Positions 1 to 38,500 of a stretch of DNA of 55,969 nt are shown here, one piece after another (the first letter of the stretch is position 1; every line of letters begins with the position of its first letter). This stretch comes from Folioceros fuciformis (lineage: Eukaryota), in NCBI GenBank assembly GCA_049999805.1, contig JBNGIO010006320.1, positions 227,624 to 283,592 of the forward strand. Reading direction: 5' to 3'. The notes below the pieces were generated by a model that did no database searches, had not been told where the DNA came from, and worked only from the letters and a program-made list of their open reading frames with translations. The position numbers and the translations under genes are program-made.

Positions 1-113
1 GCTGATTGTTGAGCAACTTGCCAATGGTTCGAGAACTATGTCAGGTCGTGACCTGTAATTTTCTGACAAAGTCTAGCCAACCACAGAGAGGGGTTTCCTT
101 CCTCGCACATGAC

Positions 114-10987: not shown

Positions 10988-11984
10988 TGCTGCAGTGTTC
11001 GCAACACCTTCTGCTATTGCAACATGCGGGGCCTAAGGATCTCCACAAAGAAATGGCAAGATAGTAAAAAACAGCTCGCGCATTCCTGACGTACGTGCAA
11101 GCTTCAAGGTTCAGAATTGCTCAGGACTGCAAATCCGAGAGGAATTGCAGCATGAATTGCAGGAAGGTTCAGTGAACACCAAATTAGAGCCTCCCATACA
11201 ATCCACTCGCAAATTATCGAATGAGCCGAGTTCTGGGACATCCCTGCACCTTGGCCGGACAGCTCCGTGCTCGTACATGCTTTTCATGAGCTAGCTTGGA
11301 GGAGCCAAAGCAGGACTTCGCTGGGCCCCAACCCAACAACAACTAAATTACCTGGAGGTGAGCGCCAGTCAGGCCGTGAGGACTTACCCCCAACCAACAG
11401 CTCTCAACCTGCCGCACAGTACATACATGGCCACCAGGGTGCACATGGATGTGAACTGCTCGCTGCCACATGCCTACATGGCTGGAGTTCGAATGTGAGA
11501 TCGGAGGCGATACCTGGAATTGTTCTGTACTACGGCACTCACGAGATCCTCCATGCTGTAACCTGTGAAACATGGACATTGTTAATTACGGCCGGCAGTC
11601 TAGTCGGTATTGAACGACTCTTGGTCCCATATCCTGTGACGAGCAAAGACACAGAGAAAGTAAGCAAAGGGGCGTCTTGCCTGCAGGCAAAAGGAAAACT
11701 TCAGGGTCGAGATACATGATCGCTCATCCAGCTTGGTTGATCCCATGCTATCGCACATGATTTCAGATCTAGGAAAAGACTGCGGTAACCCATATCGCTA
11801 ACACTTTTTGGAGATCTGACGCCGCTCTTGCGACCAGGTGGAGTCGAAGAAGGTTACGATCATGGTGCCTTAACATGAAATGATCTCCATACGTTCTTTT
11901 TCTTCTTGAAGTAGCCTAAGCTGTACAGTGCTCCGTACGAAGCTCCAACTCGTCATTCGCCAATGCAACTACTGAGTGTTTAAA

Positions 11985-14101: not shown

Positions 14102-15472
14102 CCATCACTTCCACTTCCACGGCCCTAGCCCGCCATCGCCATGCATGGCTACGAAGGCAGGTACATCCCATTCACCCCTTTCCGAGGTCAAGGCAGCTAG
14201 CTACCTGTTGCCAAGAAGGCAGGGTTGAGGGACTCCGACGCTGCCGAGATGCAGGGGACAAGACGCATCCCTGTCAAGGATGGATGCATTTGCACTTTGT
14301 AGTCACCGACGCCAGTGCCTTCCTGAACGTGGACTGGAGGAAAGCTGGAACGGAGTTGGGAAATAAAACCCTTCACAGCCCCCGGGTGACAGATGGACAG
14401 CCCTCGACCTGGTCTGACGACCAGCATCCGGTCTGCGTGGTTCGTGGAGGTCCTCGTCTTTCTCTCTCTTTGGGGGTTCAGCACGGATATGCTTGCGTCA
14501 ACAATCTCTTAGCTTATAGAAGTGGTTGGCGACAGAAAACGAAACGTGCGGATTTGGCCGTGCCCGGGAGCGCCTTCGGGCCTCTGGGCGGCATGGCCTC
14601 GACCGCAGCCGTGTGGTCTGGTCTCTGCCTGTCTTGCCGAGGCAGGTGCCAAGTTCTCTCATCTCTCTAAAAGTGATTATTACACGGAGAAGGGTCTGCT
14701 GTCCTCACCCGCACCCGCAGGCACCTTCCAGCATTTGCATTTGCAGGTGCAGGTGCAACCTCGTATTGGCTTCCAGAACGGTACACCTTGCATGAGCAGT
14801 TGTTGTGGGTCCAGGTGCAGAGCTTAATCCAGGCCTACCGAGATGGTGAAGACGGGCATTAGCCTCTAGAATAACTCCTTTTTCGGGATTGCGCAAGGGA
14901 AGTTCTCACCTTCCAAAGGATCTTGTTCCGGAAGGAGCCAACCGACGACCTCGTCTGCGTGGCCAGTAAACAACGTTATTAGAATAGTGGCAGCGGAAGC
15001 GGAGCTCGCCGGACATCGGAGGGCAACGTCTTCGTCCTCTTCGTCCTGATTCCGAGTGGTGCGCCTAGCATTTGAGCGTTGGGAAGTGGCCTTCCGCAAG
15101 TCTTGGTCTCCGCAGTATCCATTTCTGTTGGTCTGACAGGTGACGTATAGATCGCACTTTGCCCAAGGGAAATGTCCAGCTTGTCCTGGCCACTACGGAG
15201 TTCGTAGCGGGATAGTAATAGCATTGGGGGTTTTGGCGGTCGGGGGGAATAATTCCAAGTATTCTAAGGATGAGAGTGGGTTCGGGCCCGGTTTGCAGAA
15301 TTCTGGAGGAGGGCAGCGCGGGTTGGACGTGTGGCCAAGCACACGGGCCTGCTTGTGCCAGATGCTGCTGTTTGTGAAAGAGCACTGGTGGAATCCGGCA
15401 CCTAAGACGCAGGGGACAGAGGCAGGGGAAGGACACCGGGTGCTTCTGCTCATCCAAAATGAGAGGCCCAGG

Positions 15473-17516
15473 ATGAGGACGCTGGGACGCTGGGCAGCAG
15501 TCGTCACAGTTCTGCCCATGCTGATCGTGCTTGTGTCGTGCAGAGCTTTGTCTGTGGAGAGGAGATGCTTGGATGCGCAGGAGGACTCTTCTCCGTGCCC
15601 CTTGAATTTCACGGCCGGATGGGCAGTGTTTCCTTGGATTGGAGACCAAATCAAGAGCAGCTCTTTGGACAAGCAGTGCTCAGGGGTGATCGCCGGTTTG
15701 AACCTTGTTGTGTCTGTGCATGTGCGTGCCACCGGTGCATTCTTTGTGCCTCAACATGCAGTAGCTGGTTGCCTCGATGACTTGGAGGTGAGTGGGCCTG
15801 TTTCTCCACACCACGGTACGATCGCAAATGGTTGGTGGGACTGGAATGGGGTGATTGTGAAGGTCAGACCTTTGGTGTGTGTTGCAGTCGGCGTTGCAGG
15901 CATACGGAGCGCCTTCCACCTTGCTGCAGCAGTGTAACATCTCTCTGAACGAGTTGTCCGACTCCTCCAACGTCTGCCAGGGCAACCTGACAAGCAGCGG
16001 CATACGACGCCGGATTCCTGCTGATGAGGGGGCAACCATCAACGCCACTTGCGGGGTTTCTCTTACTGAAATTGCATCGTGCAGCCTCTGCACCGCCAGC
16101 CTGGTGAACTTGTCGCAGAGGCTGTATGGAAATGGCTCCAGTGCGCAATGCTTTGATGCCGCCAACATATGGGCAGCCGCGGTGGTAAACAGCCGAGGGC
16201 CCCTCGATCCTGACACTGCCAGATGCTTGTTCTCCATCGGTCAGTGGACTTCCAGCAAAGGACAAGTCCGCCGGAAGGTGATCATCGGAGCGGCGGCAGG
16301 GGGAACCCTGCTAATTGCGATCGTTGTAGGAGGCGGGATCTGGTTGAGGGGCAGGAAGCGGAGGCTGGCCAAGGCGAAAGCACAGAGCCAGCTTCTACAC
16401 AGTTTTGCCGAGGCCTCCTTGCAGTCTGGCAGCAGCGTGGTGTGGTATGACATGTCCGTCATCAAAGCTGCTACCAGGAACTTCCACAGGGACACCATCA
16501 TCGGAAGTGGCGGCTACGGCAATGTGTTCAAAGGCCAGCTGCCTGACGGCTCCGTTGTGGCACTGAAGAGATTCAAAAACTGCTCGCCGGCTGGGGACAA
16601 GGATTTCGCGCACGAAGTGGAGGTTGTCGCCAGTGTGCGGCACCGGAACCTGGTAGGACTGAGAGGCTGCTCCATCTTGAGCGGCCCTTTGGAGGGGCAC
16701 CAGAGAATCATCGTCTTGGACTTCGTCCCCAACGGCAGCCTCCACGACCACCTGTTCGGGAAGAAGTACCCACCCTTGGACTGGCCGACGAGGAAGAAGG
16801 TAGCCATCGGCACCGCCAGAGGAGTGAGCTACCTCCACAACGATGTGAAGCCGGCTATCCTCCACAGGGACATCAAGTGCAGCAACATCCTGCTGGATGA
16901 GAACATGAATGCTAGGGTTGCGGACTTCGGTCTGGCCAAGTTCACACCCGAGGGCATGACTCATGTCACTACCAGAGCAGGAGGCACTCCTGGCTACATC
17001 GCTCCCGAGTACGCTCTGCTCGGACAGCTGACGGAGAAGAGTGATGTGTACAGCTTCGGCATCGTCCTGCTGGAGCTTCTCACCGGAGTGAAGGCACTCA
17101 ACGCAGCCATGAAGCAGGGAGACTCTCCTGTACTCATCAGCGACTGGGCTTGGTACCACGCCAAGAATGGCAGGTTAGAGAAAATACTGGACCCAAGAAT
17201 GAAGAAGCAGGAGCCTCCCGAGGTGATGGCCAGATTTCTGTTCATCGCACTGCTCTGTACTCACTACCAGGTGAACGCCAGACCTTCTATGGAGGAAGCT
17301 CTCAGGTGGATGGAGAACGAACATATCGTCCTCCCCCCAATTCCTGAGCGTGACATCCCGATCACCTCGACTATTGATGAGATAGAGAGGTCCGTTGGCG
17401 GATCAGGAAACCTCTCAAGCAAAAGCGGCTTCCAGTCCTACAGTAGTTCCGAGACAGACTGGGAGACACACTCCAAGTCCACGTTTCCGACGACACTAGA
17501 CAGGGCGTCCGGGTAG
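15473..17516 (+). CDS. RKF3-like receptor kinase with Cys-rich SPARK-type ectodomain; 2 exons, 647 aa
   Basis: Exons 15473-15787 and 15888-17516. Signal peptide, CPLNF...C...CL...CSLC...CF...GPLDPDTARCLF ectodomain, TM (IIGAAAGGTLLIAIVVGGGIWL), and kinase motifs GSGGYGNV, VALKRFKNCS, LEGHQRIIV, HRDIK, DFG, GYIAPEY. KRFKNCS and LEGHQRIIV are typical of RKF3. Confidence 0.92.
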
Positions 17517-17716: not shown

Positions 17717-19377
17717 TCAATGGCCCAACTGCTGAATTATTCCAGGAAGAGACTGAGCTCCGACAAAGAGAGCATCCGCAAACAGGACCACCGCGACCTG
17801 GGCACGCCCAAACGTGGGACAATGTGATGAGGTCAGAAGGTTGGAAGACACAAAGGACTCCAAGCAAGTCCATGCCCAAATCATACCAGTCGCCCAAAAA
17901 ACATCGCTCTGTATCCCCATCCTTCCTTGGCAGCCTGAGCACGCTGTTGATCCGTCCACCTGCGAGGACCCAGCGTCATCACTACTTGTTGAGCCATCGC
18001 AGTGAAATGACTGGCAAATAAACTTGTGCTTCGTGACAGAGGACGTACCCCAGGAACTCTGAGATACCACCGATTCCGGCAAACTTGAATGGCTGCGAAC
18101 CTTCCCTCTCCAAATCCTGCGTGCGAAGAGGACTGCTTCATGAGGCAATGCGGTGTACCAGCCGAGTCACGCAGGATAGCCAAGCCACGGACGTACCCCT
18201 TCCTCTGCAGCCTCAAGGCCCCCGCTGATCCAAAACAGATTCCTGTATCCCACTTTGTACATTTGTTCACATGCTGCGAGAGACCTGTGAAATGAAGACC
18301 TGTGAGGTGGAAGAGCATGCCTCCAAAACGACTCAAACTGCACAGTGAGAATAGGCAAGGCGGCACTCGACCAGGGAGAAGGAGAATACCTCAAGCCTCG
18401 TTGGCAGGTCACAACCACATTCGCACTCTTCGGGATTTTAGCTACCACGTCAGGCATGAAACGTCTGCGCCAAGCAACAAAACAGCACTGTTACAGCGGA
18501 CTGTAAGGCGAGATGAGAAACTTGTACGAGCCAGGATGTAGAGGCTGACTCGTTATATTTGGTCACAGGGTCACCGCTCCACCATCCCCCTGTGACAGCA
18601 ACAGGCAGATGAGGTGAGGTTGATCTTGTTTGTCCTCTGGGTCTGAAGAAGAGAAGGAGAATTATATGAGAGGGATGTGAGATGGGACGTACCCATGGTG
18701 AAGCTCGTCAGCTTCTTCAGCAAGGAGCCAGGGTCTATGGATTTGTCAACATCGTACATGGGAATCCACACCGAGTTCTTAACTGCTGCCTGACCATCAC
18801 AAAACGTCCTGTCAGCACAGGAAGACGAGACCCGGCCAGAGCAACGCGGAAGCCTGACTCTGATCCCGCCCACCTTATCCCGCTCGTACGATGGCCGAAC
18901 GTCTAGCAAGGTGTAGTCCGTCAGCTGCAGTGCATAGCCGGCTTCTTTGGGCGACATGGACTTCACCCTCCCCTCTTGCACCTGCACCGCACCCCCCACA
19001 CGGACATTGAGACTTGGCTCCTGCTGCTGGCAGCAGCATGGCACGCCTCCTGCCCGCAACCAATGCACCGCCCTTCCGTCCCATTGCCCTTGGTAGCAAA
19101 CCGGGGAATGCAGAATCACCTGCCTCGCCCACCGCTTCTCGGCTGCCATCATCTCCTTCATCTGCTCCGCCAAGTCCGCGCGCACCGCAAGCTGGCGGGA
19201 AGGAACGAGCTGCCGCCTCGCCCCATGGCGGCCGCCGGGAGACAGCTGCAGCTGCAGCTGCAGAGGCAGGGGCAGAGGCGCCCAGAGCGCACAAGCGCCG
19301 GACTGGACAGCCCCCGTCCTGCTCCCCACCACCAAGTGCACCGACAGCCCGGGGCCGGCAACGCCCAGGCCCGCCAT
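17717..19377 (-). CDS. STR11: Chloroplast rhodanese-like domain protein (STR11-like), multi-exon
   Basis: Spliced peptides: EMMAAEKRW, KEAGYALQL..LLDVRPSYER, GGWWSG, active-site loop CQRGLR-SLAACE, NLFWISGGLE, FAGIGGISEFLGWTDQQRAQAAKEGWGYR, ADALFVGAQ...LGH*. N-terminal transit peptide present. Confidence 0.92.
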
Positions 19378-20435
19378 CGCTCCCGCGCACCGACACAGCC
19401 CAATTCAGGAGCCCCGCGCGACCCGACCCACCAGCCTCAACCTCACCCTTCGCCTCCACCAAGCCCTCACACACATTCCAGCTGCGGAAATGGCGGCGGG
19501 CTCAGCGTGGGTCTCGCCCAAATCCACGGCAAACGCCCAACCCCACGACATTCCACCCACCCCCGCTGCGCACATACCTGCAGAGGAGATGGTGTCGACA
19601 TCGATATCCCTGTCCTGCTGCTCGCAACCGTCCGGGCCTGGCTGCCTTCCGGGCAAACAACTCCCAGCAGCATCCTGCCTCACCTCTCCGAAGGCTCGGT
19701 CCGGATTTTGTTTCAGAGCGCGAAGTATATCCTCCGCGCGGATGTCTGGAGTGGGTACTCTTATCTGACAGCGTTAATCAGACGCTTAGCGGAAGTGGGG
19801 CCTTCCTGGCCGTAATTCCTTCCATGGCAGGAGGGAACTTGAAGCGAACGAGCACCAAAAAAAAATTCTGACCATCCTATCCTGCGCTGTGCCCGGGAGG
19901 CGCCGCTAACCACCTCCGACAGCCATCCCGTTCGTGCTGTCTTTCTGATTCTTGAGAATTGGGGTGCCCAATAGGCGGGACGTGGATTCCTGCCACCTCC
20001 TCGCCAGACGGGCAGAGGCCTGGCCCGTTTAGCATCATTTCAGGTAAGGATTAGGATGACCTCAACCATGCACCCTGTCGTGGAAACTGGTTTCTCAAGC
20101 AAGGCGGAAAACGCAGAAATGCCACACAGGCGCCATCCGGACAGCAGTGGCAGCACTCTCAAAATCGCAGCAACCCAGTAAGTTGTTTGCATTTCAAAGT
20201 TGCATATAGAAAAGTGCGGTAATCTAACAAAGCTCCTCTTCCGGTAGAGCCATGGGAACGAGAGGGTAGGGGTAGGAATCTTCAGATTTGGCGTTCTCTT
20301 CTTAAGGCATGTTTCCTCACTATTGGGCAAGATGGGTCCTTCACTCTCTTTTGGCCGTATAGTCTTCTTTTTATTTTATTTTCTTTCCGTATCGTCCCAC
20401 ATTGATGCACCCAACTCCCCCAACTTTTTTTTTTC

Positions 20436-21116
20436 AGGCTATGCCTTAGTTTTCATCTCTTAGGGATTTGAAGGCTATGCCTCAGTTTTCATCTCTTAGG
20501 GATTTGAAGGCTCCAAGCTTCTATTCTTGAAAAACAATACAAGCAGGTGCAGCTCAGTCTTCGTAAGAATCCTTCTATCCCCAACCTAGTTGGATGCAGT
20601 GCTATTTGTACTTAAAAAAGTGCATAGGTTTTTAGCCTTGATTCGACCTTGCATCCAAGCTTTCCAAATAGCAAAAGCCACATTTTCTACTAAGATGAGT
20701 TGTGAAAGCTGTGACCTACTAAGATGAGTTGTGAAAGCTGTGACAGTTGCGGCCCTATAGTTCTAAGGCTGCAAGACTAAAGGCTACAAGGCTTAAGCCC
20801 CTTTGGCCACACTGACTAAAGGCTACAAGGCTTAAGCCCCTTTGGCCACACTCTCACTCAGTTGGGCCTCTGCCCAAGGTCTATCCTTACAACCACATTG
20901 CATGGAGGAGCCCAAGGTCTATCCTTACAACCACATTGCATGGAGGATACAAGGCCTGAGCTCCTTTGACATAGTCTCACTCAGCTAGGTCTCTACCTAA
21001 GTTCTGGACAGACAAAGTCATTGGCCTCATGCCCTGTCACATGGCGGAGGCCTCCATTGAATCTCACGAGAAAGCACAAGTAGAGGCCTCCATTAAATCT
21101 CACAAGAAAGCACAAG
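20436..21116. repeat. Series of five separate short tandem duplications (29-39 bp)
   Basis: Paired units start at 20436/20472 (36 bp), 20687/20716 (29), 20775/20814 (39), 20872/20910 (38) and 21047/21083 (36). Confidence 0.9.
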
Positions 21117-22289
21117 CTTCATTGCCGCGTGATATGCTAAATCAGTTTTACTAGAATAGTTATACAAGAAAAGGTTTGGTTGTTCAAGATTGCACTTACC
21201 AGAAATTTGTTTACATTCATGGCATGTACAAAGGATCAATTATCCCTCACACATGCTTCACAATTAAATCTCAATTTGAGGCTTGCCTTCATGAGAAAAA
21301 AAGACTCTCATGTTATAGAGTGTGTCCATATAATAACCAAGTATCCAACTACTTGTATTACTACATGACAACTGACAACACATTACAACTTCAGAGCCTT
21401 GGAATTTTTCTACCACATAGTTAAGCATAGTTGAATTGATCCACTACCATTGTAGATTCAACCATTACAAATGATTCAGATGGATAGATTGATGAATTGC
21501 TCTTCAGCATTTTGTGTTCATAATAATCACCCATTAAGCTTTGTAAGGATATGCACAAAGCAACCAAGACATGTTGTCTTCATATGAATCTTCCACAAGG
21601 CAAGGAGGATTTGTTTACCATAAAGCATGTGACATTATAGCAGTGCATTACTTTTAGTGTAGGAGGATACTCGTTTGGCTCCTTTGCATGTCCCTTTCTT
21701 ATCTTTGTTGAGATCTTATCTTTGTCTCAACCAAGGGCCCTTATGTCTATTTGATTCTGAAGAAATATGTTTTACTTTACTGTTATATCTACTGCACTGG
21801 CTCGCGCTATGAGATGAGAGATTCATGTTGGACAAACACACATCACAGCGCCAAGGTGGGAGCGGCATAAGGACTTGGACTCGAAAGTCGAGAAGAGGAC
21901 TATCTGAAGTGTGCAAAAGGGCAAAAGTACTCCCAACCACGGCTGTCTTGTACTGCAAGGTGGCCCGGTGCGAACGGGAGAGAGAGAGAGAGAGTGTGTG
22001 TGTGAGTGTTTTCGAAGTGCATGGACCGTTCTATGGGCTGAACTGTGGGTGGGCCATATGGAAGTTTGGGCGCGCATTTGAGCAAAGGAAGAGGACGCAG
22101 CAGCAGCCAGGGATTGGAGGTCCGTGTTCCTCCCCAACTGGGTGAATGCTGGCTAGGTCATGGAGTGTGGGGATTTGCTTAGCTGGCGGACTGGCTGCAG
22201 CTGCGGCTCTGGCAATGGCCCGGCTGCTGCAGAATTCGCGTATTCTTGGAGAGGCGGGGAGATGGAAATAGTGTGGAGGTGATCAGCTG

Positions 22290-25200
22290 ATGAAAGGAAC
22301 AGAAGGAGGGAGCAGGGCTGAGCGTGTTGGATGCGTTGATTCGATGAGAAAAGATCTTGCCCTTCACGTGTGTGGGAAACGAGGGGCTCGGCATCAGGGC
22401 GGATGTGTTGGATGTCTGATGGTGCTGTCGGACTGCGCCAGCCCTGGGCCGAGCAGGGACGAGGGCTGCGAGGTGGGGTCCGTGAGGTACTGCCGGGACG
22501 TGCTGGGTTTGAACAATGACGGCTTCGACCCACGGGCTAAGCAAATCGAGCGGCTGGTGCCGCGGGAGGAGGTGCTGCGGGTGTTTGGGGGCCGGCCTGG
22601 GGCCAAGAAGGGCCTCCGGGCTGAGAATTGCGTAGACAGCCATGGCAGTCCCGACCATGAGCTCATGGAGTTTGTCCGGGATATGCAGAATAAGGTGTAC
22701 AGGTCGTGCAAGTCCAAGGACATCAGCTTCGCCTTCGCGCGCGGCATTCTTGCCGACAGAAAGGGGGCTCGGATCGACTGGGCCACATTCGCGCACAAGA
22801 CGCAGGCTAAGCAGCGGAAGATGGCGGCCAGCTGGGCGGAGCGGCATCCCGGGGAGGTGGTGTCCGGCCGGGACGTGAGTGGGCGGGACGCTGGGAGGGA
22901 AGTCACCAGCGGCCGCTGCCGGGAGGAGGAGGTGAACAGCTGCGATAAGGGGCTGCGAGCTCCCGCGGCGCCCACTGTGGAGGAAGAGATGGGGTGGCAA
23001 CAACACAGTGGGCATGGCGGAGGAGGATTGGAGGGAGCGGACAAGGCGCACGTCGGGGATGACGATATTTGGGACAATAACAGGATCGAGGACATCGAGG
23101 AGCAGCTGCGAAGAGTGGATATGCAGAGGCGACACTGGCACGAGGAGTATGTGAAGGTGCTGCAGGCGTCGCTGCAGGGACTGAAGGATGGGAGGCGGGT
23201 GGCAGAGATGGCGATCCAGGACATCACCATGAAGCTCAAGGACGGGCGGGGGAAGCTGGTGGAGACTCAGCGGAGGATTGAGTCTGTGAAGGAGAGCTTG
23301 GAGCAGAACATTGCGGACCGGACTGTGCACGAAAGGAGGTTGCAGACTCTGGTGACGGATAAGAGGAGGCTCGGGACGAAGGGGGGTGCTGTGAAGACGC
23401 GGGATTTGAGTGAGGTGACAACGGAGAAGGATCTGGTGCAGGATCTTCTGCAGGGGTGCTACGAGCAGAGTGGGATTCTGGAGCAGCTCATGTCTCGCCA
23501 TGTGCAGATGGAGATCGTGTTGACGCACAGGGTGGAGGAGCTGGACAGGCAGCTGGCCGAGGTGATGGTGGACTTTCAGGAGAAGGATGCCCGGGTAGAG
23601 AAGGCGTCCAAAAAGCTGCAGGAGGCTGGGCAGATGATGTTGCACTTGCAGACGGTCTACAACCTGGTTAAACAGTCGGAGAATCTGGTTGTGGTGCCCA
23701 GGTGTATTCCTCAGCCGAGGGAGTATCCGCGGGAGCTCAACCCGCCGGAGACTGTGACTATCAGACCTTGCCCCATGTGTTCGAGGTGGTTTTATTGTGG
23801 GGATTGGGTTGGTGCGTCCTGCGGTTGTGTGTACCATCTGCACTGTGCTGCTCTGTGGTTCAAGCAGTCCAATAAGTGCTGTAAGATTGGGTGTGGCAAG
23901 AACATGCACCCTGACTGGCTAACCGCCTGGGGCAAGCAGTGGGATGATGAGGCGTTGCTGACGAATTTGGCGAAGAATTTGGATGAATGGCGGAATAGGT
24001 GGAAGGATGATTACAGATGTCAGGGAACGAAGAGATGCCGAACGGACAACTTTTCCTCTTATGACATCCACCTTGAGCACGGTGGAAGCTTTGAGGGTGG
24101 TCGATCAGGGCTTGACACCACTGAAGAGCTCATTCACGTGCTCGATTCGAAGAGGATGCGTTTGAGCGAAGATTCGTCGCTAGCCTGCAATCAATGTGAG
24201 CTGAAGCCTTTGCCTTACGTACTCATTTCTGTGGACGCCTGGTGTCAAGTCCGAGACCCTGGTTTGGGATCTCTTTTCTTTGTGGGACGCTCTTTATTCT
24301 TGAAGTAGTGGTCATGGCTTGGTCAGTTTTGCAACTCTTGCGAGCTTTTGGAACATCGTGTGTGTGTGTTTTTCAATCTTGTCGTCCTCTGGTCCCCTTT
24401 TTTGGTTTGCCAAACATAAAATGGAGCTGAGAAGCTGAAAAGTTTGTAGTCCTTGTGTTCCCTTTCACAGGTATGCAAGACTTTATAGTGCATGACGTTC
24501 CTAAGTTGGTCGGGAGCCAGCAGACAATGGACCATGATGTGCATGATAATGGACTAAAGCTTGGTGAATCGACTCACCATGTGTTAGATACAACAGAAGA
24601 AGTAGCCAACAGTCTTCAGTTAGATGGATCCACTCAGCTTGTATTAGGAAATCTAGGAGATGCTAGGGATGGTGGCAGACAACGTGCAGAGCTGGATTTT
24701 TCGTGTGAGGGACGTGGACTTCAGGACGACAAGGATGAAGGTGGGGAAACTGCAGACTATGTGGCAGCCATGGAGTGTGGCTGTGGCGACAACAGTGACT
24801 TGGGGGTAGCAGTGGATCACGGAGAGATGGATGTTCTTCGTGAAGAAGCAGTGATACAGAACGATACAGCAGATTTAGGGTCGGGAAGAACCAGGGACGC
24901 TGGCGCACCGGTTGGAGTAGCAGATATTCTGATATCAGAGGGCAACTGTCAGGAGGTTCCAGAAACTGAAGGTGTTGTCAAGGCGCTGGACATAGCTCAA
25001 CACACTTCAGCAATAATTGGAGAGGCAGTCCTACAGAAGCATATAGGGCAGACGGCGGCCTCTCAACAAATTTTGGGTCAAGGGGTCGAAGTTGCAGCTG
25101 CTGGTGGGCCTCCAGCAGGAGTACAGTGGGAAGAATGCAATAGAGGTGATTCGAATGTAGCATTTTCAAAGGGCGTAAAGACGGGTTCTGAGCCAGCAAG

Positions 25201-27824
25201 GGAATTGGATGATAGGACGCTCACCCCACATTGTTTTAGAGTAGAAGCACCTTTTCAAGGTATCAAGTACTATAGGAAGACTGGACTGGGAAGGCAGAGA
25301 GACTTGAAATCAGGGGGGGCAACGGTCGAATCTGTGATATCTGAGGGCAAGTATAAAGAGCGTCCACAGTCTGAGAACGCTCCCAAGCGTGTGACCTCAA
25401 CTCCGCATGCGTACACTGACTTTAGACAGGAGGACATTGATGTTAATTTACCAGCGGCAGGAAATGAGGAATTTGAAGACCACAGCTATGTTATGTCTAG
25501 TCCATGTCAGAATTTGTCTTCTCTGCACAAACCAGATGAGATAGATGTAAATTTACCAGCACCGGATGAGAAGATGGAGGATGCTGAGGTTTCGGAGGCG
25601 GCTGCCAATTTGACAGCTGAAAGCCATCGGATAGATGCGGCAGGTGAACAAGCTCCTGGTGGGCAAGTTTCCCTCGAGGATCAGATCGGAAAGGTTGGTG
25701 AAGAGAGAGGAGGTCGGCGTGGTGGTGTCAGTAACGATGGTGAAGTTAGTATGGAGAGTGATCTCTGCATGGAAGATGATGCTGGAGCTAGGCAAGCTCA
25801 TCAGTACTTGGTTTTCATGGAAGAGTTTCCGGAAAGGGATGGGGTAGAGTGTGTCAACCTGCAGGATCCTGTGAACATGCGAGGGCAAGTCCATGAGAGG
25901 GACGCAGATGATGACCCCATCATTCCGCTAGTAGCAGTGGAGGATATGACTGGGAAGGATAGAGAGCTTGAAGATGGCCACAATCTGGATGATGTGTCGA
26001 TGACAACCCCGTCTCAGGGGGCAGAGATGGATGCAAGGTGCAGAGAAACCCTCCATTCCTCGTCTCCAGATGATCCTTCTGCAACAGGCGAGAGGGCTAG
26101 ACGAGCTCAGAACGTTGGCATGCAGGACAGTGATGTGCAGGGTGCAGTAGCTCCGATTGAGCCTGCATCGGATGTCAAGTTGTATTATCAAGCCAGTATA
26201 GATGTTCAGACGGGTACCATTGCTCTGGACAATGTGAGCGTGAAGGAGCTCACTCAGGACGCGGAAGCTGTACAATCTCAGGATCAGACACTTGCCCAAC
26301 GTGATGCAACTTCCACAGACGGAGTGATGGATGTGGAATGCAGTGGCAGTGCAGCAGATGTGCAGGTGACAGCAGGACCACCAGCTNNNNNNNNNNGGAG
26401 GGTGCAAAGAAACCCTTCTTTCTCTCTCTCCAAGCGATGCCAGCGTCACAGACGGAGAGGCGATGGATGTTGAAGGCAGTGCCAGAGTAGTGGTGTATGC
26501 TTTGCAGACAGCAGGAAAACCGGCAGAGTCTCAGATGGCTGCAGGTGGCGAAGAAACTCGTCATTCATCATCTCCAGATGATTCAACTGCAACGGGAGAG
26601 AAGGCAGCAGGAGTGCAGAACGTTGTTAGCTTGCTGGCTGACTGTCATGGCATGCTGGACAGTGATGTGCAGGGTGAAGCAGGTGTGATTGTATCGGCAT
26701 CTGTTCATGATGTTGCAATGTTGGATCGAGACAACAGAGATGATCAGGTGGGTGATAATTCTCTGGACGATGTGGACGTGGACGGGCCAACCCATTGTGT
26801 GAAAAGCTTGAAACCTGAAAATCAAACAACTGCACAACATGATGCAACTGCCACAGTTGAAGGGGAGAGGCATGTCCAAGGCAGTGACAGCGTCGCGGAT
26901 GATGTGCAGGTGGCAGTAGGAGCAGCAGCCGCGGTTCAGCCAATTGATCCACTAGAAGCGCCTGTGACAGGCGCTGCCACCCCAGCGATAAGATTAAATG
27001 CCGCAACGAATGCGCAGGAGGTCGAACAGTCTTGTTCTGCGTCCTCACGTGATAAAGGCATGCAGGAGGAGGTAGCGAGTGAGGCTCAGAATGATCTCAA
27101 CCTGCAGGACGATGCGGAGCACGAAGTTGACAAAATGATGACCCTACAGGATGACGCTAGCTTGACATCTACACCTATGGACGAACTAAATGCGGGAGAG
27201 GAAACACCTCCAGACCAACCCGCACCCGTCGAGGTTGTCTCTGAGCCTGAACAAGAAGAGCCGAGCCACCAGGTAACCCCCATCATCACTAAACGGGTCA
27301 TGACAGCGAGTTACCCTGGCGAGGATGGAGCAGAAGAATCATGCAACCATCCTCCTGCACCCACAGAAGGTACAAATTCCCTGGATCATTGTGTATCATC
27401 ACAGACTCTACCTGACCCAGGTGAGCAAGTCTCCTTCCTAGGCTGTCCCACCCTCCCATCTGGAATGGGCGCAATCAGCCCCCAAGCGGGCAATCTAATT
27501 GGAAGTAGGTGGCCATCTGGGAACGCTGTTGAGGATGTCGTCAACCGGCATGTGGCAGCAGGAGCGGAAAGGCAGGAGGAAGGCAGCGTATGTTCCGACA
27601 GATGTGGCACTGCCTCCGTGCCACCTACGGTGATCGAACTACTCTCAGACGACGAGGAGATCGAAGTGATTGATGCGCCGCAGTTTATTCCTCGAAGGCG
27701 GAAAAGGTGTACAGGAGTAGGCCTACCACGGTGGCCCTCGTCCCAGCAGGTGCGTCCACCAGGTGGATCAGGCCGCTTCACGTCGCTCCTCCGATTCGTG
27801 GAGCAAAACGCGCCGAGCGGGTGA
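22290..27824 (+). CDS. Large spliced protein (~1750 aa): TE-like N-terminal domain, coiled coil, variant RING finger, acidic repeat tail, SIM-like motifs and NLS
   Basis: ORF 22290-24195 splices in phase 1 (T|GTGAGC...TTTCACAG|GT) to 24471. The frame change to the 26463 ORF falls at the 10-N gap (26387-26396), and that frame is open from the gap. RING CPMC-x13-CGCVYHLHC-x10-CCKIGC at 23769-23894. VIELLSDDEEIEVID and PRRRKR lie near the C-terminus. Start codon and 3' end are uncertain. Confidence 0.7.
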
Positions 27825-28527
27825 TATCGGTAGAGTATCTAGGAAAGTCCTATTCTAGAGCAATTTTGTCCACCATCACGCTAGTATTGTTGAAAGCTGT
27901 AGATCCTAGCGACCATGCACATTCGGAGGAAGCTTCATCCAGATTCCCAGGACTAGGATTGACCGTTGTCTCTGTTCCTATGGATGTCACGAGCTTGGCT
28001 GGGAAGGCTTGACGCATGCGTTGAGCTTTCGGCTGGACGAAGGGCCAGTCAAAAAGTGGCACACAGGAGACTGACCTTCGTCTGTAGCTACTTCAGTTGC
28101 TCGTGCATAGGCTGGAGGCTGTAGTTGTGTGGGCCAAGGGTCCCGGGCTTTGTCCGGCTGTCGACCGCCCTAGCTGGCGAAGTGACACATGTGGGCAAGC
28201 AGTTCCTTCAACGCATTCTCGCGGAGTTGGGGCATAACATCTCGCGGCGCGGAAGGCGATGAGATTGCGGGGCCACATCCGGGCAGGCTTCTTCACGTGG
28301 TTTCGATTTTTCTAAATCCTTTGCCTCTCCAAGTGTGTGGGTAGTGGAAATCGCGGAAGCGGCTTTGGAGCGCCACTTGTGGCCCGGCCCCATGGCCGAG
28401 GAAGACGGGGAGGGAGCGGGGATTATGTATAACGCACTAGCGTGCGTACCAGACCATACAGACATACCATATCATACTAAAGAGAAGAGTCCGGCCGGAG
28501 TTATGGTACTATCATGATAGCCTTATT

Positions 28528-28763
28528 ATTCCATTTCATTCCATTCCATTCCATTCCATTCCATTCCCTTGCATTCCAATTCCATTCCATTCCANNNNNN
28601 NNNNATTCCAATTCCATTCCATTCCATTCCCTTGCATTCCAATTCCATTCCCTTGCATTCCAATTCCATTCCATTCCCTGGCCTTCCATTCCCTGGCCTT
28701 CCATTCCCTGGCCTTCCATTCCCTTGCATTCCAATTCCATTCCATTCCCTGGCATTTCATTCC
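28528..28763. repeat. (CATTC/GGAAT)n pentanucleotide satellite with higher-order variants, spanning an assembly gap
   Basis: ccattccattcc runs plus recurring ccttgcattccaattccattc and three copies of cctggccttccattc. N gap at 28595-28604. Confidence 0.95.
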
Positions 28764-31700
28764 CGATCGTCATGGCATAAGGAGCCGCCGGGTTCAAAAG
28801 CTCAAGCTCTGCTCTTCATACTGCGTATCGGATAATGATCGATCGCCAGGAGGAGCGGGGATTGGGCCGATGGAGTGGCCTATAGTGGGGTCGTTTTCGG
28901 AATAAGTAATTGGGTCGTAAAGCAGGCAGTATGACACACGGCCCACTGGCTCTCCGCTGCTGCTGATATCACCGGATCTGCGTGGACGGATAGTTTGACG
29001 CAACGAGCGGTTGGTTGCGCCGTCCAGTGGCCACCTAGCTGACCGAGCTTGGAAAGGCGTTGTCGGAATTCACTGTGCTCTTGATGTGCGAGAGATTTGC
29101 GTCCGCTCTGTCGTCACCTGCGGCGAGAGCGGACAGAAATGGACTGGAGGAACATCCGGGATTAGCAATGGAAAAGCCCCCTGGGAAGGAGCTGCTCAGC
29201 TTTGGAAGCAAAACTGCACGCACTGTAGCTTTTTCATTATTGTGTAGCACATGGAGAATCTGGACGAGGTTGCGAACCTCAACAGTGCGCGGTGACTTGA
29301 ATCCACACAATGCTACAACGGAGATTCTACGGCCCTCGTGAAAGGACTGTGGATAACAGGACAAGGGCGCTGCCTATCTGCTCTGGAATCCTGACAAGTA
29401 AAGACATCATAATGGCAACAATGATCACATTACTGAAGGATCTTGCTGCAACACAAGATGGTACTGCTTACAGCACCTGAGAGCACAAATATACTTGGCG
29501 AGGAAGCCTCAGGCTCGCTCTTCGGCTTCAGTATACAGTCCACCCGTTCTAAGAATTGAATGCCATTCAGGCCTGAAACACGGCGGGGCTAACGGCCAGG
29601 AATCGTGGTTTAGGCCTGAATGACATTCAACACTTAGGACGGTCGACCGGGTCGCTCGACTCTTCAAGCTCTTCAGCTTGCGGTTGTGCGTGCATGCGCA
29701 ACCATCGGGCACCACTGGGCAGCAGCGTCCAGCACACATGTATACCAGTCCATTTCTACAAAAGCACAACACGTGACACACACCCTTCCACCACAAACGA
29801 CGCGTTTCACGGACCGGGTCAGCAGGACTTGGTCTCGAGTGGACGTGTCCTGGAGCAGGCACAAGCTCAAGATCAGTCACAAGCTCAAGATCAGTCACGA
29901 GAGGAAACCTTCAAAAACCCTGCTTCCCTCGTCCCCGTTCAAGAAAGAACGCTACCCTTTCCGGATCCAGCCACATTCACACCAACGCCACTGACCACAC
30001 ACACAAAAGCACCAGACCAGCGCGCGCCAAGCATCCATCAACCATGCTGCGTCTGCAATCAGAGGAGGCCTGCAAAAGGGACGAGAAGGAGCACAAGGCA
30101 CGCAGCCAGCCAGCCAGCCAGCCAGCCACACACACACAAAGAGTTACACAAAGACAAGGCTACCGAAGGCGAGCACACTTTGGAGCACAAGACAGGACAC
30201 GAAGGGAGGAGAAGAGAAGAGAAGAGAAGCGCAAACCGAATGCCTAGAGTGTGCAAAGCCAGCCACAATTTATACGCGGAGGACGAACAGAAGCGGACAC
30301 TCGTACCTGGCGCATGCAACGACGGCACTGCTCAGCTTGGCCGGCAAGTACACGCAGACTGCCGGCTTCATTCTGTGCGCGAGAGAACAGCTTCAAGTGT
30401 GGCGCCAGCGGCAAGCCCGCTTAGTCGGGACCTGGGGCCCCACGCATCTCACCAACCCGCCATTAAAGCTGTACCTGTACCTTGTTAATGGAGGTGGAGC
30501 ACACCGGAAGCAGCCCGCGTTAAATTAAAATACCGGGACGTCACGCTTGGATTACCCAAATCCCTTTCGCCTCAAATATCTATACTATACAACCCTCATG
30601 AAACTATATCTTTTATCATCTGCATAGTCTACTAGTTAGTGGGACCGATTGACTCCTGCTGGACTCCTTCCTCCCTGTCTGTGTGTTTAGAAACCAGAGA
30701 AGACTAGGTACTAGGCACGAGGACAATACTTTGTGAACAAGCTAGACTCCATATGTGGTCGATATTCTCTCACCATTCCGACTTAGACTCCAACATACTC
30801 CATTTTTTAATCAGTCGCTACCTGAACTTTAGATGTAGATGATATTTTCTCAGTCTTTCTATCTATATATAAACTTGATACTGCTTGTTTTCCTTTCTCT
30901 CTGCACTTGCACGTGCACCTCTGTACGTACAAACCTAGGTCACCCTCCAAGAATCTCTTATCGTATATGATCATACCCTATTCTTTAAGTAGTAAGAAGA
31001 AGCCTATTGATGATCTCCCAAATCCTCCAGTCTTCTCAAACAATAAGAAGTCAATTCACCACACATAATTTCCCACAGTATGGCATCGAGACGAGACCTG
31101 ACTTTACGCAACAGTAACATGGGTGACCCAATCTTCCCTAAGCGCATTCGCAAGAACCCAATAAATGCCAAAAAGGTAAAGCTCTCACATCTTTTGCATT
31201 TGTCCCTCGAAAGGAAAGGAAAGAAAAGGAAAGTCGACGACTCAAAACAATGTTTCCACACATCTCGAAATGTACACATTTTGTAATCATAAACTTTGAA
31301 GACAAAAGAATAGACTTTGTCACAGCGTTATCCATGCAAATGAAGGAAGGAAGAAAGGACGCAACCTGCTCTCTCCATAGGAAGCTAGCTGCGAAAGCTC
31401 TCAGAAGCTTCTCCTTCTCAATCGATGAGAAGAGATTTGCGAAAGAGAGATTTGTGAAGAAGAGTTTTGTGAAGAAGAGTTTTATGAAGAAGGGATTTGT
31501 TTTCTACTTTGTGGTGTGTTGTTAGTGTAATGAGGCAGACAACCAATGAGTCTCCTTTGGTTGTGCATGCACTCATTCCTTGCAATGACAAGAAGTTTGT
31601 TGTACCTATGTATGTACATACGGGGCAGTGTGCTCGTGGGTAGGATGAAGAAAGGGGGCGATGAGTCTGCGACGCTGGGGGTGCCTGATCCATTCTCGCG

Positions 31701-32501: not shown

Positions 32502-35500
32502 ATGTTGAACAAGTTGCTGCCCCGGCGCCCCTCTTCGCTGTCCTCGCAGGTATTGTCATGGCTCCTGGATGGGTGTTTCTGATGTGGAGGCAGTGTCTGA
32601 GCCCATGGTCTAGCTGTGGTGTGGATCCGGAATGGTGTTGATGCAGCTGCCTCTTGTCCAGCACCCTGTTGCTTGGAATGCCAGCATTCTTTCTACCTTG
32701 CTTGTTCTTTACTCTGATTCGGCTGTGGTGAGAGAGTGCGACGTCACCTTAAACCCTAAACCCTTACGGGTTCTGAATCCATCGGCAGCTGAACGGTTGT
32801 CAAGTCTGCAGCTTACCAGTCAATATTCCTGCAATTGAAGTGTTTGTTGTTAGGGCAAGGATGGTTTGGCTGTGCAGGGTGCTGAAAGAAGTGATAGTCC
32901 TCGGGTGAGCATATCTAAGGAACCAGGCAGTGAATTTGAGGCAACCGTAAGCCCAGAACATTGCAAGCACATGATGATGACCTAAGACTGACAAGTCTGA
33001 TTTAGAGGGTCGTTTCAGTGCGGTATGTCTTATACAGCCTGCTGTGCTGGAACGCAGACGTCTCAGAGTGCGGCCCAGAACCTGCCCAGTGGTGGTTTGA
33101 AAGGGGCGGAGGTGGAGCTGACATTGACAGGCCATAGCGGAGTACCAGCCACCGCCCTACTTCTGGCATATGAGCCAGCTCAGAGACTCCTAGCTGTTGG
33201 AACCAGGTGCAGGGGGGCAAGCACTTGACGTAGTGCCGTTTGTAAGTCGTCAGAGATGATGATTAGCTGCTTACTCGCAGTATCTAATGCGATATCCGTT
33301 TTGATCTGTTTAGGGATGGTCGTGTAAAGCTGTTTGGTGCCGATGGCTCTGAGGATCTATTACTGTCTGCAGGACGGGACCCATGCAAATATCTGGAGGT
33401 GTGGCTTCTGGTGTGAACTGGGGGTCCTTTTTTCTGTTAACAAGATGGCTGCATTGTGTCTGTGGAGTGTTCCTGATGCAACTCTTCTTTTTTTTCCCAC
33501 TGTCAGTTTATTTACAACCAGAATGCCTTGGTTCATATATCTACCACGAATGAAATCAAGGTAACATGTTCGTTGCCAGGGCTATGTGGGCTTTCTGTTC
33601 TCTTAGACACAGTCAAACGTTTGTCTGTCTTGTTTCCTTGATACAAGACATTTAAACTTCGTGGTGGCTTGCAGGTTTTTGATGTCAATGACAGAGAGCT
33701 GGCTGCATCTCTACAGTGGGCTAGTTGTGTCACGGCCTTTACTGTTGCACAGGGAACTATGTTCATGTATGTTCTGATGGGCACCAGTCTCCCTCATCTT
33801 TCCAGCGATTTGGTGTTCAAAAGAATTTGTGCCTTGTACACTAGACACTACAGCTCCAGCGTGCTCCCCCTCCAAAATTGGAGGTCTTGTAACGTACATT
33901 GCCTGCTCCAGGTACATTGGGGATGAATCCGGAATGGTGAGCGTCGTGCAATATTTGCCGGAAGAGGGAATACTTTCTGTCACGCCATATTCTGTACCAA
34001 GCCATCTCACGCTCCGTAAGTGATGAGTTTTGGAAGTATACTTCTCGCTCCATTCCTTCTTGTTGAACTGTTGCAAGTTCTATTTTTCACCATCTCTTCT
34101 GACAGCCATACGCTGGCTGCACAGGTGGCCTGGTTGAGTCTGGAAGCACTGATGGGGGCCTTGTTGTTGCAATACTTCCCCAACCTGGAGCTGTTCACAA
34201 CAGGCAAACACCCCATCTTAGTCAATTGCTTGTGCACGTTCCATCTGCCACTCTGGTCTTTTCGATTAGCTCACAATCAACCCTATTCTCTTGGGCAGAA
34301 TTCTGATTGCATATTCAATTGGCTTGGTGGTTCTTTGGGGCCTCTATGAGGAGCAACCTTTACTTGTACGGGGCGGGTCAAAGAATCAGCATTCCAAGAT
34401 TAAAGGTCCGTCAGCTGGAAGGACATCACTACTGCTGGCACTTGATGACGAGGATGATCCACAGGAAATAAGCAATGCCTGTTGGGCTAGTATATCGGGA
34501 AAGCTGCTGGCTGTTGGCTACCTCAATGGAGATATTGGTCTGTGGCATATTCCAAATCCATTTTCCTCGAAGAAGGCAGAGGGCGATCCATGGTCGCCCC
34601 TGCAATTGGTGAAGCTAGCACCATCAGAACAACGTCTTCCAGTCTCTTCCATCAATTTCGCTGCAAGTGGGCAAACCTCTGGTCGTTTGTACGTATTGGG
34701 CGGAGGCGACTGTCAGCATCCTTTGAAGATAACTGTGAGTAGGTAAATATGGTTGTAGTCTGTATGAGAACACATCTCAGGGGTGCGGATCCTTGCACAC
34801 CAAGGCTACTGTCTGAGGAAGGCCGCTGCACTTGTAAAAGTTTCTGCATTCTAGGTCCAGGGGGTTCATGAAGCATCACTTCCTGCCTTTCTTTGTTTGC
34901 TTTTTCTTGTACCGTCCGTGTGCTTGATATGTCTCTCCGCAAAGGAGATGCTGTGTTGTGTCATATCTGTAAATACTGGAGCATTTACACTCGTGAATTT
35001 TCTGTTTTTGCAGGTGCTTGCTGTAGCCGAGGAGGAGCCTTGCAAGTTGCCTGCCCAAACAGAACTCCCTTGGTTTGGCCCCGTCGGAGATTTTCGGCTT
35101 TTAAGGGACACAGAGGATGTGTATGGTTCAGCCAGTGGCATTGCAGTTCTAGACAGTTCTGGTCAGCTTCGCATATATGATGAGAACACAATTGCAGGAG
35201 CGATTCACCCAGATAAGATAAGTGTATCAGACCTGCAACCTGCTCCTGTCCACCTTCAACTGTCTGAGTCAAGTATTACTACTGCGAAGGCCTTCTTGTT
35301 CACGGAGACTGATATGGCATTTTGCATTGTGCCTAAGGTGAGCGTGAGGCATTTCATTGTACACCAGGGAAGGTTGTATTCAGATTCTTTGTCATCTGGC
35401 ACCTTGATCTATACTTTCCTCCAATTTCAGGTGCTCAAAGACAATTCAGCTATCTCGTCTTCACGAGGGCTGAAATTTGGATCAGGTCATCCTGGAGGTC

Positions 35501-38500
35501 ATACTGGGGGTACTTCGACATATTACCTGTCAGGCCACAAAGATGGGACCGTTCAGCTGTGGGATGCAACTATTCCTGGGTTTCACTTTGTCTGCCTAAT
35601 CCCACAGAATCTTGAGAAGGTATGTTATGCTGTGATTGCTGCATGCACGCTTCTAGTTAGCTTAAATCTTTGTAAGCACACTCGCTTAGGTCTTGAATTG
35701 ATAAGCGCACATTTTACTGGAAAGGAGGAAGAAGAAGGTCAGGTGTATCCCCCTGTGTCGGCTCTGGATTTCTGTCCTACCTCGGGCTTACTGGTTGTTG
35801 CCCATGAGAAAGGCTTGGTAAGTGGACCTTCTGCTCTGGTGGTTTGTGCATTATTGTTGCATGTGTTCTGTTTGTGACTGTCAGCTCCGTTTTTGCTGTT
35901 TTTTTTTGTTTTTTGTTTTTTGTCCACAGGTGAGATTCTACATTCTTTCTGAGCAAAAACGAGATTACTGTAAGAGAGTCATCAAGGCTGATATGACTGT
36001 GGACACAGGTGGTTCAATTGTCAACTCTTTTGTCCATGATGTCTGCATGTGTACTCCTTAATCTGCCTTTAATCATCTTTGACTTGGTTCTCACAGGATC
36101 AGTGGCAAGTCATGACGCTGGCTTTCAGATTATATCAGATGTTGTATTGCATCAAGCTACAGTGACCAGAATACGTCTAGCGACTGCAGTTGGTCTTGTT
36201 GCTCTCGGGGATGCCAGTGGTGTGGTAAGGCCTCTTGCGGAAAAGCAGATTCTGACTGTTGTGTTCTGTATTCGAGGATCACATGTGACGTACGAAACTT
36301 GGGCAAAATGGTAGTTCATTCTCTCAATGTGCATCGCAGGTGTCATTGGTAAACTTGAAGACTATGTCAGTTTTGTACTTGAACAGGCCTATGCCTGTAC
36401 CGTCGTCTTTGGATCTTTCAGTGGTGCCCTCTGCCTTGTCCGGAACACCGTCAGGTTCTCCAAGGAGCAATGTGAACTTAAGTACACCAAGGCCAGACTT
36501 TGCGGCATTTGTGACAAATACAAAATCAGCACTTTTTGTTGTCAGTGAGAAATTGAGATATGAGTTCCATCTGGGTGATTCGAAAGTGATTGCAGCAAAG
36601 GCGGAGCCGACAGACATAAATTCGTTCTTTCTAGGTGAGATATCTGCTTTCTCAAAAGTAGTGACAACACGCAGCTTTGTGGTGTGCTACATGATGGTGG
36701 CTTGCCTTTGTGGAGTAAAGTCTTATTGCTCACCAAGCGTGGGCAACGGTAATGATTCAGATGTTGCGGGATTATGTATCTCATCCCCAGCAAGTGAACT
36801 ACCACTTCCATGGATCTCTAACCCAGCGGCAAACAATACTGGCGGAACAACTGAAAACGCCATGGATGCCGAACAGACTGGTGATGCCACAGGGTCGCTC
36901 CCAGCCTTGACGTCAGGAGAATCTGCTGACCGTGGAGAGGCTCCTGAAGAAGCTGCAGAGAATTTGCCTGCCACTCCCAAAGCAGGCACTGATTCTGGTG
37001 CAGTTCTGTCTGGGCTGTCTGAACCGGTGTTCCTTCTATTGTGCACTGAGAAGCAACTGGTTATGTTCAACATCACAGCCATGCCATCCGTAAGGGCACG
37101 CACAGGCTTTTGACACTGCATTGTTTTATAGTCGCTGCTCTCTCACATTTATTGCTGGTTTGCTGCCTTGGTTGTGCAGGGAAGATTTAATTATCTGACA
37201 AAGATCGATGTACCTGGGCCATGTATCCGAGCTTTCACACTGGGAGTGAAGGATGTCTTACCCCCTGGGCTTCTTCTGGTGTATCAAAGTGGAGATCTGG
37301 AGGTTCGGTATGTTCTGGTTTTACTCCAAATGTGTTTCCTTTTCGCTTAACCTGGTGTATAATTCAGCCAACCAGGGGAGAGGTAAGTTGTAGGTTAAGT
37401 TTTGCAGCTTGTCTTTTGCAGGTCATTGCCAGACCTTACAGTTGTGACAAAAACCTCAATCACTGAATGCCTGGGGTGGCAGCTGGAAGTCAATGATGCC
37501 AACTTGAAAACTTTGGTTTGCACGGCTGATGGTCATCTGAGCATGGTGAGTACTGTTGCTTTGGTTGGTGCTGTCCAATTTAAGTGTGCTTTATGAAGGT
37601 GATGTTCCTGACGGATTGGGGGCGCAGGTTGTGTTTTCTGACACGGACGGCAGTGCAGAAGTTGTTCAGATGTCTGTTCTGACTAATATTCCCTCACAGT
37701 AAGCTACTTACAGCTGCACATAAGCTGGTTTGTGGAGATTGTGTTTTCAGGCGCTGGCATAACCCATGATTGCGTGAATGCAGACAGAGGTGCAGTGCAG
37801 AGCCTGAAAGTCCTCAAGGATCTGGTGTTGAGGCGGAGGAACCAGAGGGTACCGGAGTTGTAAGCAGTGAGCGCAAAAAACCCAAAGTCTTCAAGGCCGT
37901 ACGTCTTCTAAACTTTTCTGTGTGCTGGCTTGAGATTTTGTGTTCATGGACCGGTGTTTCTATGTTCGTTTTTTAGGAATGGAGGATACCCGTGTATGTT
38001 GTGCGAGAGTCAAAACTGAGCGATGTTTGTTGTTTGGTTGAACGTTTCTTTGGTGCTACTTCGAGCTCATGCAGTTCAAATCTCGTTTACGTGGCATGGC
38101 AAAGGAAGCAAAATTTGTGGTCGCCACTGTGCAGAGCAACCTCCCTAGCGAGGTTACGAAGGCCCTGAAAAAGGGCACAAAGGTTGTCAGTAGCATCGGC
38201 AACACAGTGAGCAGCAGTTTACCTACGAAAAGCTTAAGCCTTCCTAGGAAGAGCAAGATCTGGTTGAGAATGAGCTCAGAAAAACCGGTATTGCGCTCGT
38301 CGTCAGACTTGCAAGTCTTGTTTCTGAAGCCTGTTGGCTCGGCAGAAGAGCTGGACATCGACGACATAGATATTGATGACGTGGGCAGTGATGATTTTCG
38401 TTCGACACCAGCTGTTGATGGTACGCATTTCATGTCATGTTTAGCTCTGTTGGTTGTTGTGGACTGCTCTGCTCCCAAGTCTGTCATGGATGGTGCTCTT

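Follow-up and report, generated by a model that had tools for sequence, protein, structure and literature searches.

We examine here a 55,969-nucleotide (nt) stretch of contig JBNGIO010006320.1 from Folioceros fuciformis (hereafter the window) and, within it, three long open-reading frames (ORFs) on the forward strand that an earlier sequence-only reading had joined into one protein. The explanation we favor, with confidence somewhat better than even, is that they form a single land-plant host gene, which encodes a protein of at least about 1730 amino acids (aa), belongs to a RING-finger family and specifies a probable E3 ubiquitin ligase. In the mechanism we propose, a coiled coil would oligomerize the protein, the RING would recruit a ubiquitin-charged E2 and thereby give the protein its E3 ubiquitin ligase activity, and an N-terminal domain and the tail would choose its partners or substrates. 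A predicted phase-1 intron would link the RING-bearing exon to a fast-evolving, acidic, repeat-bearing tail of roughly 1100 residues. The end of this tail, which combines acidic and basic sequence with candidate small ubiquitin-like modifier (SUMO)-interacting motifs (SIMs), may direct the protein to the nucleus, perhaps to SUMOylated proteins.

A probable single gene across a predicted intron and an assembly gap

All coordinates refer to the whole window, and ORFs are stop-to-stop frames. The three forward-strand ORFs were confirmed at 22272-24308 (ORF1, 678 aa), 24431-26473 (ORF2, 680 aa) and 26370-27824 (ORF3, 484 aa), and the gene model built from them is given in Table 1. When each of the two tail ORFs was subjected to 500 mononucleotide shuffles, no open frame exceeded 189 and 196 codons, respectively, against 638 and 475 observed. 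The first part of exon 2 contains no stops in the proposed frame, compared with 37 and 52 in the other two forward frames, and a codon model trained on two exons favors the proposed frame only weakly.

Table 1. Gene model, protein features and neighboring genes in the window
Feature	Position	Strand	Basis or remark
Exon 1	22344..24195	+	617 codons plus one base; frame open from 22272
Conserved N-terminal helical domain, residues ~40-175 from ATG 22344	22461..22868	+	Family alignment, AlphaFold
Coiled coil, residues ~246-452	23079..23699	+	Proline paucity, heptad-type periodicity
RING-H2-type zinc finger, residues 476-517	23769..23894	+	C-X2-C-X13-C-X-C-X2-H-X2-C-X10-C-X4-C
Family-specific extension, HPDW...WG motif and long helix	23895..24038	+	Alignment, AlphaFold
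Predicted phase-1 intron, 275 nt, GTGAGC...CACAG	24196..24470	+	Best sites, break in P0001 similarity
Exon 2, first part, 638 codons of acidic tail	24471..26386	+	Open frame
Repeat across gap: unit A 26025-26386, short unit 26397-26532, unit C 26533-26930	26025..26930	+	
Assembly gap, exactly 10 N, at repeat-unit junction	26387..26396	.	Sequence
Exon 2, second part, 475 codons plus stop at 27822-27824	26397..27824	+	Open frame
C-terminal module: VIELLSDDEEIEVID (VIELL-SDDEE-IEVID, 27630-27674), APQFIP, RRRKR (27693-27707)	27630..27707	+	
Possible extra splice donor CAG|GTGCGT, 72 nt upstream of stop	27750..27755	+	Seen in sequence
Two tandem LRRNT_2 + LRR receptor-like genes, each over several frames, multi-exon	76-3356, 7884-11032	-	
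SPARK-domain receptor protein kinase	15137-17516	+	Pfam
Gene with weak WD40 match	34855-35874	+	Pfam
Sugar transporter	41873-43924	+	Pfam

ORF1 and ORF2 are joined in phase by a donor at 24196 (AAT|GTGAGC), which leaves one base of a split codon in exon 1, and an acceptor AG at 24469-24470 (TTTCACAG|GT), after which exon 2 supplies the remaining two codon bases. With 80 % pyrimidines in the 20 bases that precede the acceptor, this is the best-looking pair in the interval, splice-site quality being a by-eye judgement against the consensus. Translation across the predicted junction (...LACNQ-C-MQDFIVHD...) is free of stops. The only close relative found, a 650-aa protein (P0001), is 64 % identical to the window protein across exon 1 (404/636). 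This similarity ends exactly at ...CNQ, that is, at the donor; both proteins then have a Cys and are fully divergent thereafter. The Cys-Lys found at this point in P0001 could be encoded by TGT AAG, which, as read back from the peptide, would place a GTAAG at the same site. Because the start of P0001 aligns with ATG 22344, we prefer this start over the alternative in-frame ATG at 22290; the protein then comprises 1731 aa (1749 aa from the alternative start), plus any residues hidden by the gap.

The apparent frame change between ORF2 and ORF3 coincides with the 10-N gap. When each ORF is translated in its own frame, residues 494-638 of ORF2 show 40 % identity (E 8e-21) to residues 20-178 of ORF3; at the nucleotide level both stretches belong to a diverged tandem repeat of about 510-540 bp, with 75-81 % identity among units and a shortened unit right after the gap. 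Because the repeat is read in corresponding frames before and after the gap, ORF2 and ORF3 share one frame, and the frame change is an artefact of the placeholder. In other units '...TAGKPA' is followed by 'ESQMAAGGEETRH', whereas in this instance '...TAGPPA' runs into the gap, beyond which the sequence resumes with 'GGCKETL'. Judging from the other unit junctions, the gap may hide as little as about 18 nt, or whole additional repeat units. The in-phase splice sites, the break in P0001 similarity at the donor and the continuity of the repeat bear out the joining proposed from sequence: the three ORFs are probably a single gene, and what an intron and an assembly gap have split into three apparent ORFs should be annotated as one.

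Several observations weigh against this gene model. An ATG at 24473, only two bases into exon 2, makes a separate ORF downstream of the predicted intron conceivable. A search of proteins of 1081-3085 aa returned no exon-1 relative longer than 1081 aa, and no relatives of the tail (ORF3) were found among proteins of 261-832 aa. The GC content at third codon positions (GC3) is 0.74 in exon 1 versus 0.42-0.47 in the tail, in a neighborhood where genes span 0.43-0.72. In addition, comparing repeat units A and C over 145 codons gives a ratio of nonsynonymous to synonymous substitution rates (dN/dS) of 0.64, indicating weak constraint. These observations could be accommodated by two transcription units or a short protein, with exon 1 running on to the stop at 24306-24308 (about 655 aa) and ORF2 and ORF3 forming either a separate young gene that starts at ATG 24473 or an extension that is untranslated or in decay; the family members that carry both conserved domains, described below, also end soon after the RING. 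Such an arrangement would nonetheless have to explain why the similarity to P0001 stops abruptly, without fading, at a GT(A/G)AG (deduced on the P0001 side), why the strongest acceptor is in phase and why the two tail ORFs extend far beyond their shuffled counterparts. The 164 nt between the ORF1 stop and ATG 24473 would also leave little room for a promoter. We therefore regard separate units as unlikely and retain the single gene.

Along the single gene, GC3 starts at 0.79 in the N-terminal domain and 0.82 in the coiled coil, drops to 0.62 for the RING part and reaches 0.42-0.47 for the tail, a fall that reflects either a 5'-to-3' gradient or a tail of different age or origin. The 3' end is uncertain, since use of the possible donor at 27750 would replace the last 25 residues by an exon further downstream. 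On the opposite strand, exon 1 is overlapped by a 579-aa frame (22179-23918) that is rich in Pro, Leu, His and Gln and has no Pfam match; most likely, the GC3-rich, purine-rich codons of the sense strand create this frame as a side effect.

The RING-type finger and its protein family

The finger encoded in exon 1 presents the eight zinc-ligand positions with cross-brace spacing, seven of these columns being invariant in 37 sequences. The fourth ligand is His in 62 of 78 alignment rows and Cys in 14, and it is Cys in the window protein. A profile built from 78 relatives (A2) matches solved RING structures, led by RNF126 (E 3.7e-6), RNF24 (1.2e-5) and RNF4 (5.4e-5) and including RLIM (2e-4) and Arkadia (2.3e-3). 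The window sequence on its own has its best PDB match in ZNRF1 (E 0.016), which also has Cys at the fourth ligand, and also reaches RNF126 (0.057). AlphaFold models the finger region with a mean predicted local distance difference test (pLDDT) score of 84.8, rising to 94-97 across the finger itself. Nearly all of the top 50 PDB matches returned by Foldseek for this model are RING domains. RING-H2 domains superpose with root-mean-square deviations (rmsd) of about 1.8-2.3 A over 48-53 columns; RNF126 is matched with probability 0.99 (rmsd 1.8 A over 49 columns) and RNF165 with a TMt of 0.77, and RNF8 is matched as well. The finger is followed by an extension in which the Trp is present in 75 of 78 rows and the Gly in 72, and for which the model places a helix at model residues 81-109.

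Other results count against a conventional, active RING. The window finger matches none of the Pfam RING models even at E<=1, and the Foldseek E-values are only about 0.1, which is not surprising given the small size of the domain. Spacing in the last ligand pair is X4 instead of X2, and the residue after the last ligand is Gly, where many active RINGs have an Arg or Lys 'linchpin'. Because of this spacing and this Gly, the ligase activity of the protein could be weak or absent. By our count, 53 of 102 relatives have a RING-type Pfam match at E<=0.01 and 10 of 102 reach the curated cut-off; among these ten, one (P0035) is an ordinary multi-RING protein and another (P0025) passes by virtue of a second RING. 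It was thus family-profile and fold work, and not a Pfam match of the window sequence, that confirmed the finger noticed in the sequence-only reading. On the evidence of that profile and the predicted fold we accept it as RING-type, a label it merits despite the Pfam miss. Searches of other resources added little: Pfam returned only DUF745 for the three ORFs, at E 0.036, which we rejected as below the cut-off; PHROGs gave no match; and exon 1 hit RING clusters in the Atlas with scores of at most 0.87, which we treat as a lead only.

The window protein thus shares with RING-H2 E3 ligases (RNF126, RNF24, RLIM/RNF12, RNF165/Arkadia, ZNRF1) the cross-brace ligands, profile homology (E 3.7e-6 to 2e-3) and the predicted fold, but it differs from them in the X4 spacing of the last pair and in the HPDW...WG extension, and it is unrelated to them outside the RING. 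The long coiled coil directly before the finger resembles the arrangement of Bre1/HUB1 and RNF8, where a coiled coil immediately precedes a C-terminal RING. There is no coiled-coil or N-terminal homology to these proteins, however, and the window protein extends about 1100 residues past its RING. The coiled coil itself, another element of the sequence-only reading, is corroborated by a single proline in about 210 residues and by a hydrophobic 3.5-residue periodicity over residues ~299-452 that only 0-2.3 % of 300 shuffles matched in each segment scored. In this part of the protein, the profile that also covers the N-terminal domain (A1) matches tropomyosin, prefoldin, GCN4 and lamin with E-values of 0.008-0.5.

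The N-terminal domain was found in 13 of 103 stored relatives, one of which (P0002) is apparently an artefact, and its alignment (A1) contains an invariant Gly (G82), Phe (F131) and Trp (W146). AlphaFold models blocks within residues 41-170 mostly at pLDDT 85-98. At the sequence-profile level the domain matches nothing in Pfam or the PDB, and there is no usable Atlas match. Comparison of the model with known structures yielded no match either, the best E-values being 1.7 among PDB folds and 0.47 among viral folds. The domain is family-specific, and its predicted fold has no known match. The sequence of P0002 corresponds to the N-terminal domain of P0001 with Ser-to-Phe, Pro-to-Leu or Phe, Arg-to-Trp and Ala-to-Val replacements throughout. 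This pattern suggests that P0002 was assembled from C-to-T converted (bisulfite-type) reads and is not a paralogue. The same conversion may account for some relatives with Cys-to-Tyr replacements at zinc ligands.

An exhaustive search returned 102 relatives at E<=1e-3. Within the stored set of 103, coverage extends to the finger in 97 relatives, to the N-terminal domain in 13 and to both in 8; the latter measure 477-798 aa, stop shortly after the RING and lack the tail of the window protein. The named relatives come from Riccia sorocarpa (KAL3676315.1, KAL3687295.1, KAL3681661.1 and KAL3698318.1) and Ceratodon purpureus (KAG0597150.1), and all are annotated as 'hypothetical' or 'RING-type domain-containing'. 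They belong to the same finger family, and KAL3676315.1 and KAG0597150.1 additionally carry the N-terminal domain. These named bryophyte relatives are distant, with E-values from 1e-7 to 7e-7 and 24-32 % identity where they match, and, at 469-798 aa, they have other C-terminal extensions. KAG0597150.1, which is P0025, has a second, canonical C3HC4 RING in addition to the N-terminal domain and finger (PF13920, 35.5 bits), and its locus tag contains 'UG', which may point to a U sex chromosome. Kinship of the family to the Marchantia V-chromosome RING gene ORF162 is a possible lead; two papers, one of them PMC9261002, do no more than name that gene, and a search of the literature for a multicopy liverwort RING gene turned up nothing relevant. 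No publication on the family was found in a literature search that was narrow in topic and thus gives no evidence that the family is unpublished. The family is defined by an N-terminal helical domain, a coiled coil, a RING-H2-type finger and the HPDW...WG motif; it is uncharacterized, and its named members are all bryophyte. The scientific value is modest: the family has a confidently modeled N-terminal domain that is unmatched among known structures, and the main gains are a correct annotation and a testable SIM hypothesis.

The acidic tail and its SUMO-interacting motif-like module

The tail comprises 1114 aa, of which 18.4 % are Asp or Glu and 7.2 % Lys or Arg (net charge -125), and it is poor in aromatic residues (Phe 1.2 %, Tyr 1.0 %, Trp 0.3 %). 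It matches no Pfam family at E<=1, and its C-terminal 120 aa match no PDB sequence at E<=10. Of the acidic, disordered tail described in the sequence-only reading, the acidity is therefore evident, while the disorder is likely. A charge-hydropathy plot also placed well-folded domains on the disordered side and is hence uninformative in this respect.

A Val/Ile-rich core followed by a run of Ser and acidic residues is the classic form of a SIM, and two such cores stand near the end of the tail, followed by a basic RRRKR run that we take to resemble a monopartite nuclear localization signal. The cores and the basic run reported in the sequence-only reading are thus present, but SIM-like sites in the tail do not exceed chance expectation: across 5000 tail shuffles, 2.7 sites are expected against four observed (p 0.29). 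A tandem SIM-like pair arises in 8 % of the same shuffles, and a strict core followed by an acidic run in 2.9 %.

If the module is functional, the protein might be a SUMO-targeted ubiquitin ligase (STUbL), in which VIELL...IEVID would bind SUMO or poly-SUMO, RRRKR would mediate nuclear entry and the RING would ubiquitinate SUMOylated targets. The module resembles the SIM form of PIAS, Daxx and RNF4, the strict core with its acidic run is uncommon in shuffled tails, and the profile matches of the finger include the STUbLs RNF4 and Arkadia, although among many RING-H2 domains that are not STUbLs. Set against this are the chance-level site count and the frequency of tandem pairs in shuffles. No tail relatives in which to trace conservation were found among proteins of 261-832 aa, and P0001, despite 64 % identity, does not retain the one SIM-like site of exon 1 (EELIHVLDS). 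Family members with the same architecture lack the tail, and SUMO reading is therefore not a family trait. We consider the STUbL interpretation improbable, though reasonable as a hypothesis. The more elaborate version, in which a giant STUbL-like ligase of the bryophyte lineage gained, by exon fusion, an acidic repeat tail with a working SIM-SIM-nuclear localization module, appears to us slightly more improbable still. The protein constitutes one testable candidate for a plant SUMO-reading E3.

Comparison with known STUbLs helps to delimit this candidate. RNF4, Slx5/Slx8, Arkadia/RNF111 and Arabidopsis AT-STUbL1-6 combine a RING with SIM-like cores near a basic cluster, as does the window protein. 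RNF4 is a protein of about 190 aa with four N-terminal SIMs; the two candidate cores of the window protein, against three to four in RNF4, lie about 1150 residues C-terminal of its RING, and no homology was detected outside the RING. Herpesvirus ICP0 has a RING followed by a long, mostly unstructured region with SIM-like sequences and a nuclear localization signal. Its parts follow the same order as in the window protein, a likeness in architecture with no sequence relationship seen; ICP0 is viral, whereas the window gene lies among ordinary plant genes. Plant STUbLs do exist: PMC4890748 describes their discovery through SUMO binding and presents the BRCT-RING protein At-STUbL2 as an example; when At-STUbL2 is lost in atxr5/6 mutants, their over-expression of transposons is suppressed. 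Beyond the RING, the Arabidopsis STUbLs share nothing with the window protein. Were the exon-fusion version true, the gene would specify a plant ICP0-like nuclear E3 that acts on SUMOylated chromatin proteins.

Genomic neighborhood and mobile-element hypothesis

The sequence-only reading had placed the gene in an accessory island, considered its N-terminus transposon-like and proposed a mobile-element-borne nuclear E3 that acts on SUMOylated silencing factors. To survey the neighborhood, Pfam was scanned with 58 ORFs, hand-picked from the 107 of at least 120 aa across the window, and, in a second scan, with 8 ORFs. The flanking genes it revealed are ordinary and plant-like (Table 1), and an island is not seen in the sequence. 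Between 18000 and 32000 there are no inverted repeat pairs and no long terminal direct repeats, the direct repeats in this interval being local tandem arrays only. Transposase, reverse-transcriptase and integrase domains are absent from the 58 and 8 window ORFs and from the 102 relatives, and the 56-kb window holds no second copy of the gene.

In favor of a mobile origin one may cite the few introns of the gene and the near-identical members that make up some clusters of relatives. Clustering at 90 % identity yields groups of 16, 19 and 6 near-identical members on short contigs, one of them on 15 contigs; such groups might arise from multicopy genes or from heavy sampling of a single species, and they may represent repeated sampling rather than copy number. 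The N-terminal domain, without a match in Pfam, the PDB or viral structures, gives the transposon-like label no foothold. Given these results, a gene carried by a transposon to disable host silencing strikes us as very improbable, and the notion of a new anti-silencing system is unsupported. A host gene among host genes, with a RING-type finger and a probable ligase function, accounts better for the data.

Several further features of the surrounding sequence were recorded. About 330 nt before the ATG lies a (GA)n(GT)n tract (21975-22010), and in the AT-richer stretch upstream of the gene, five tandem duplications, perfect or nearly so and 29-39 nt in size, lie side by side (20431-21116). Further upstream, both strands of a GC-rich stretch (18570-19870; GC content 0.64) have several open frames, which give ORFs of 208-302 aa, and the ORFs scanned there match no Pfam family. 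A reverse-strand frame at 18170-19404 had been considered rhodanese-like, an assignment dropped for want of Pfam support. Downstream, 0.7 kb from the stop, a pentamer satellite of the (ATTCC)n type with interspersed CCCTTGC/CCCTGGCC variants occupies 28509-28774 and is interrupted by a second 10-N gap at 28595-28604.

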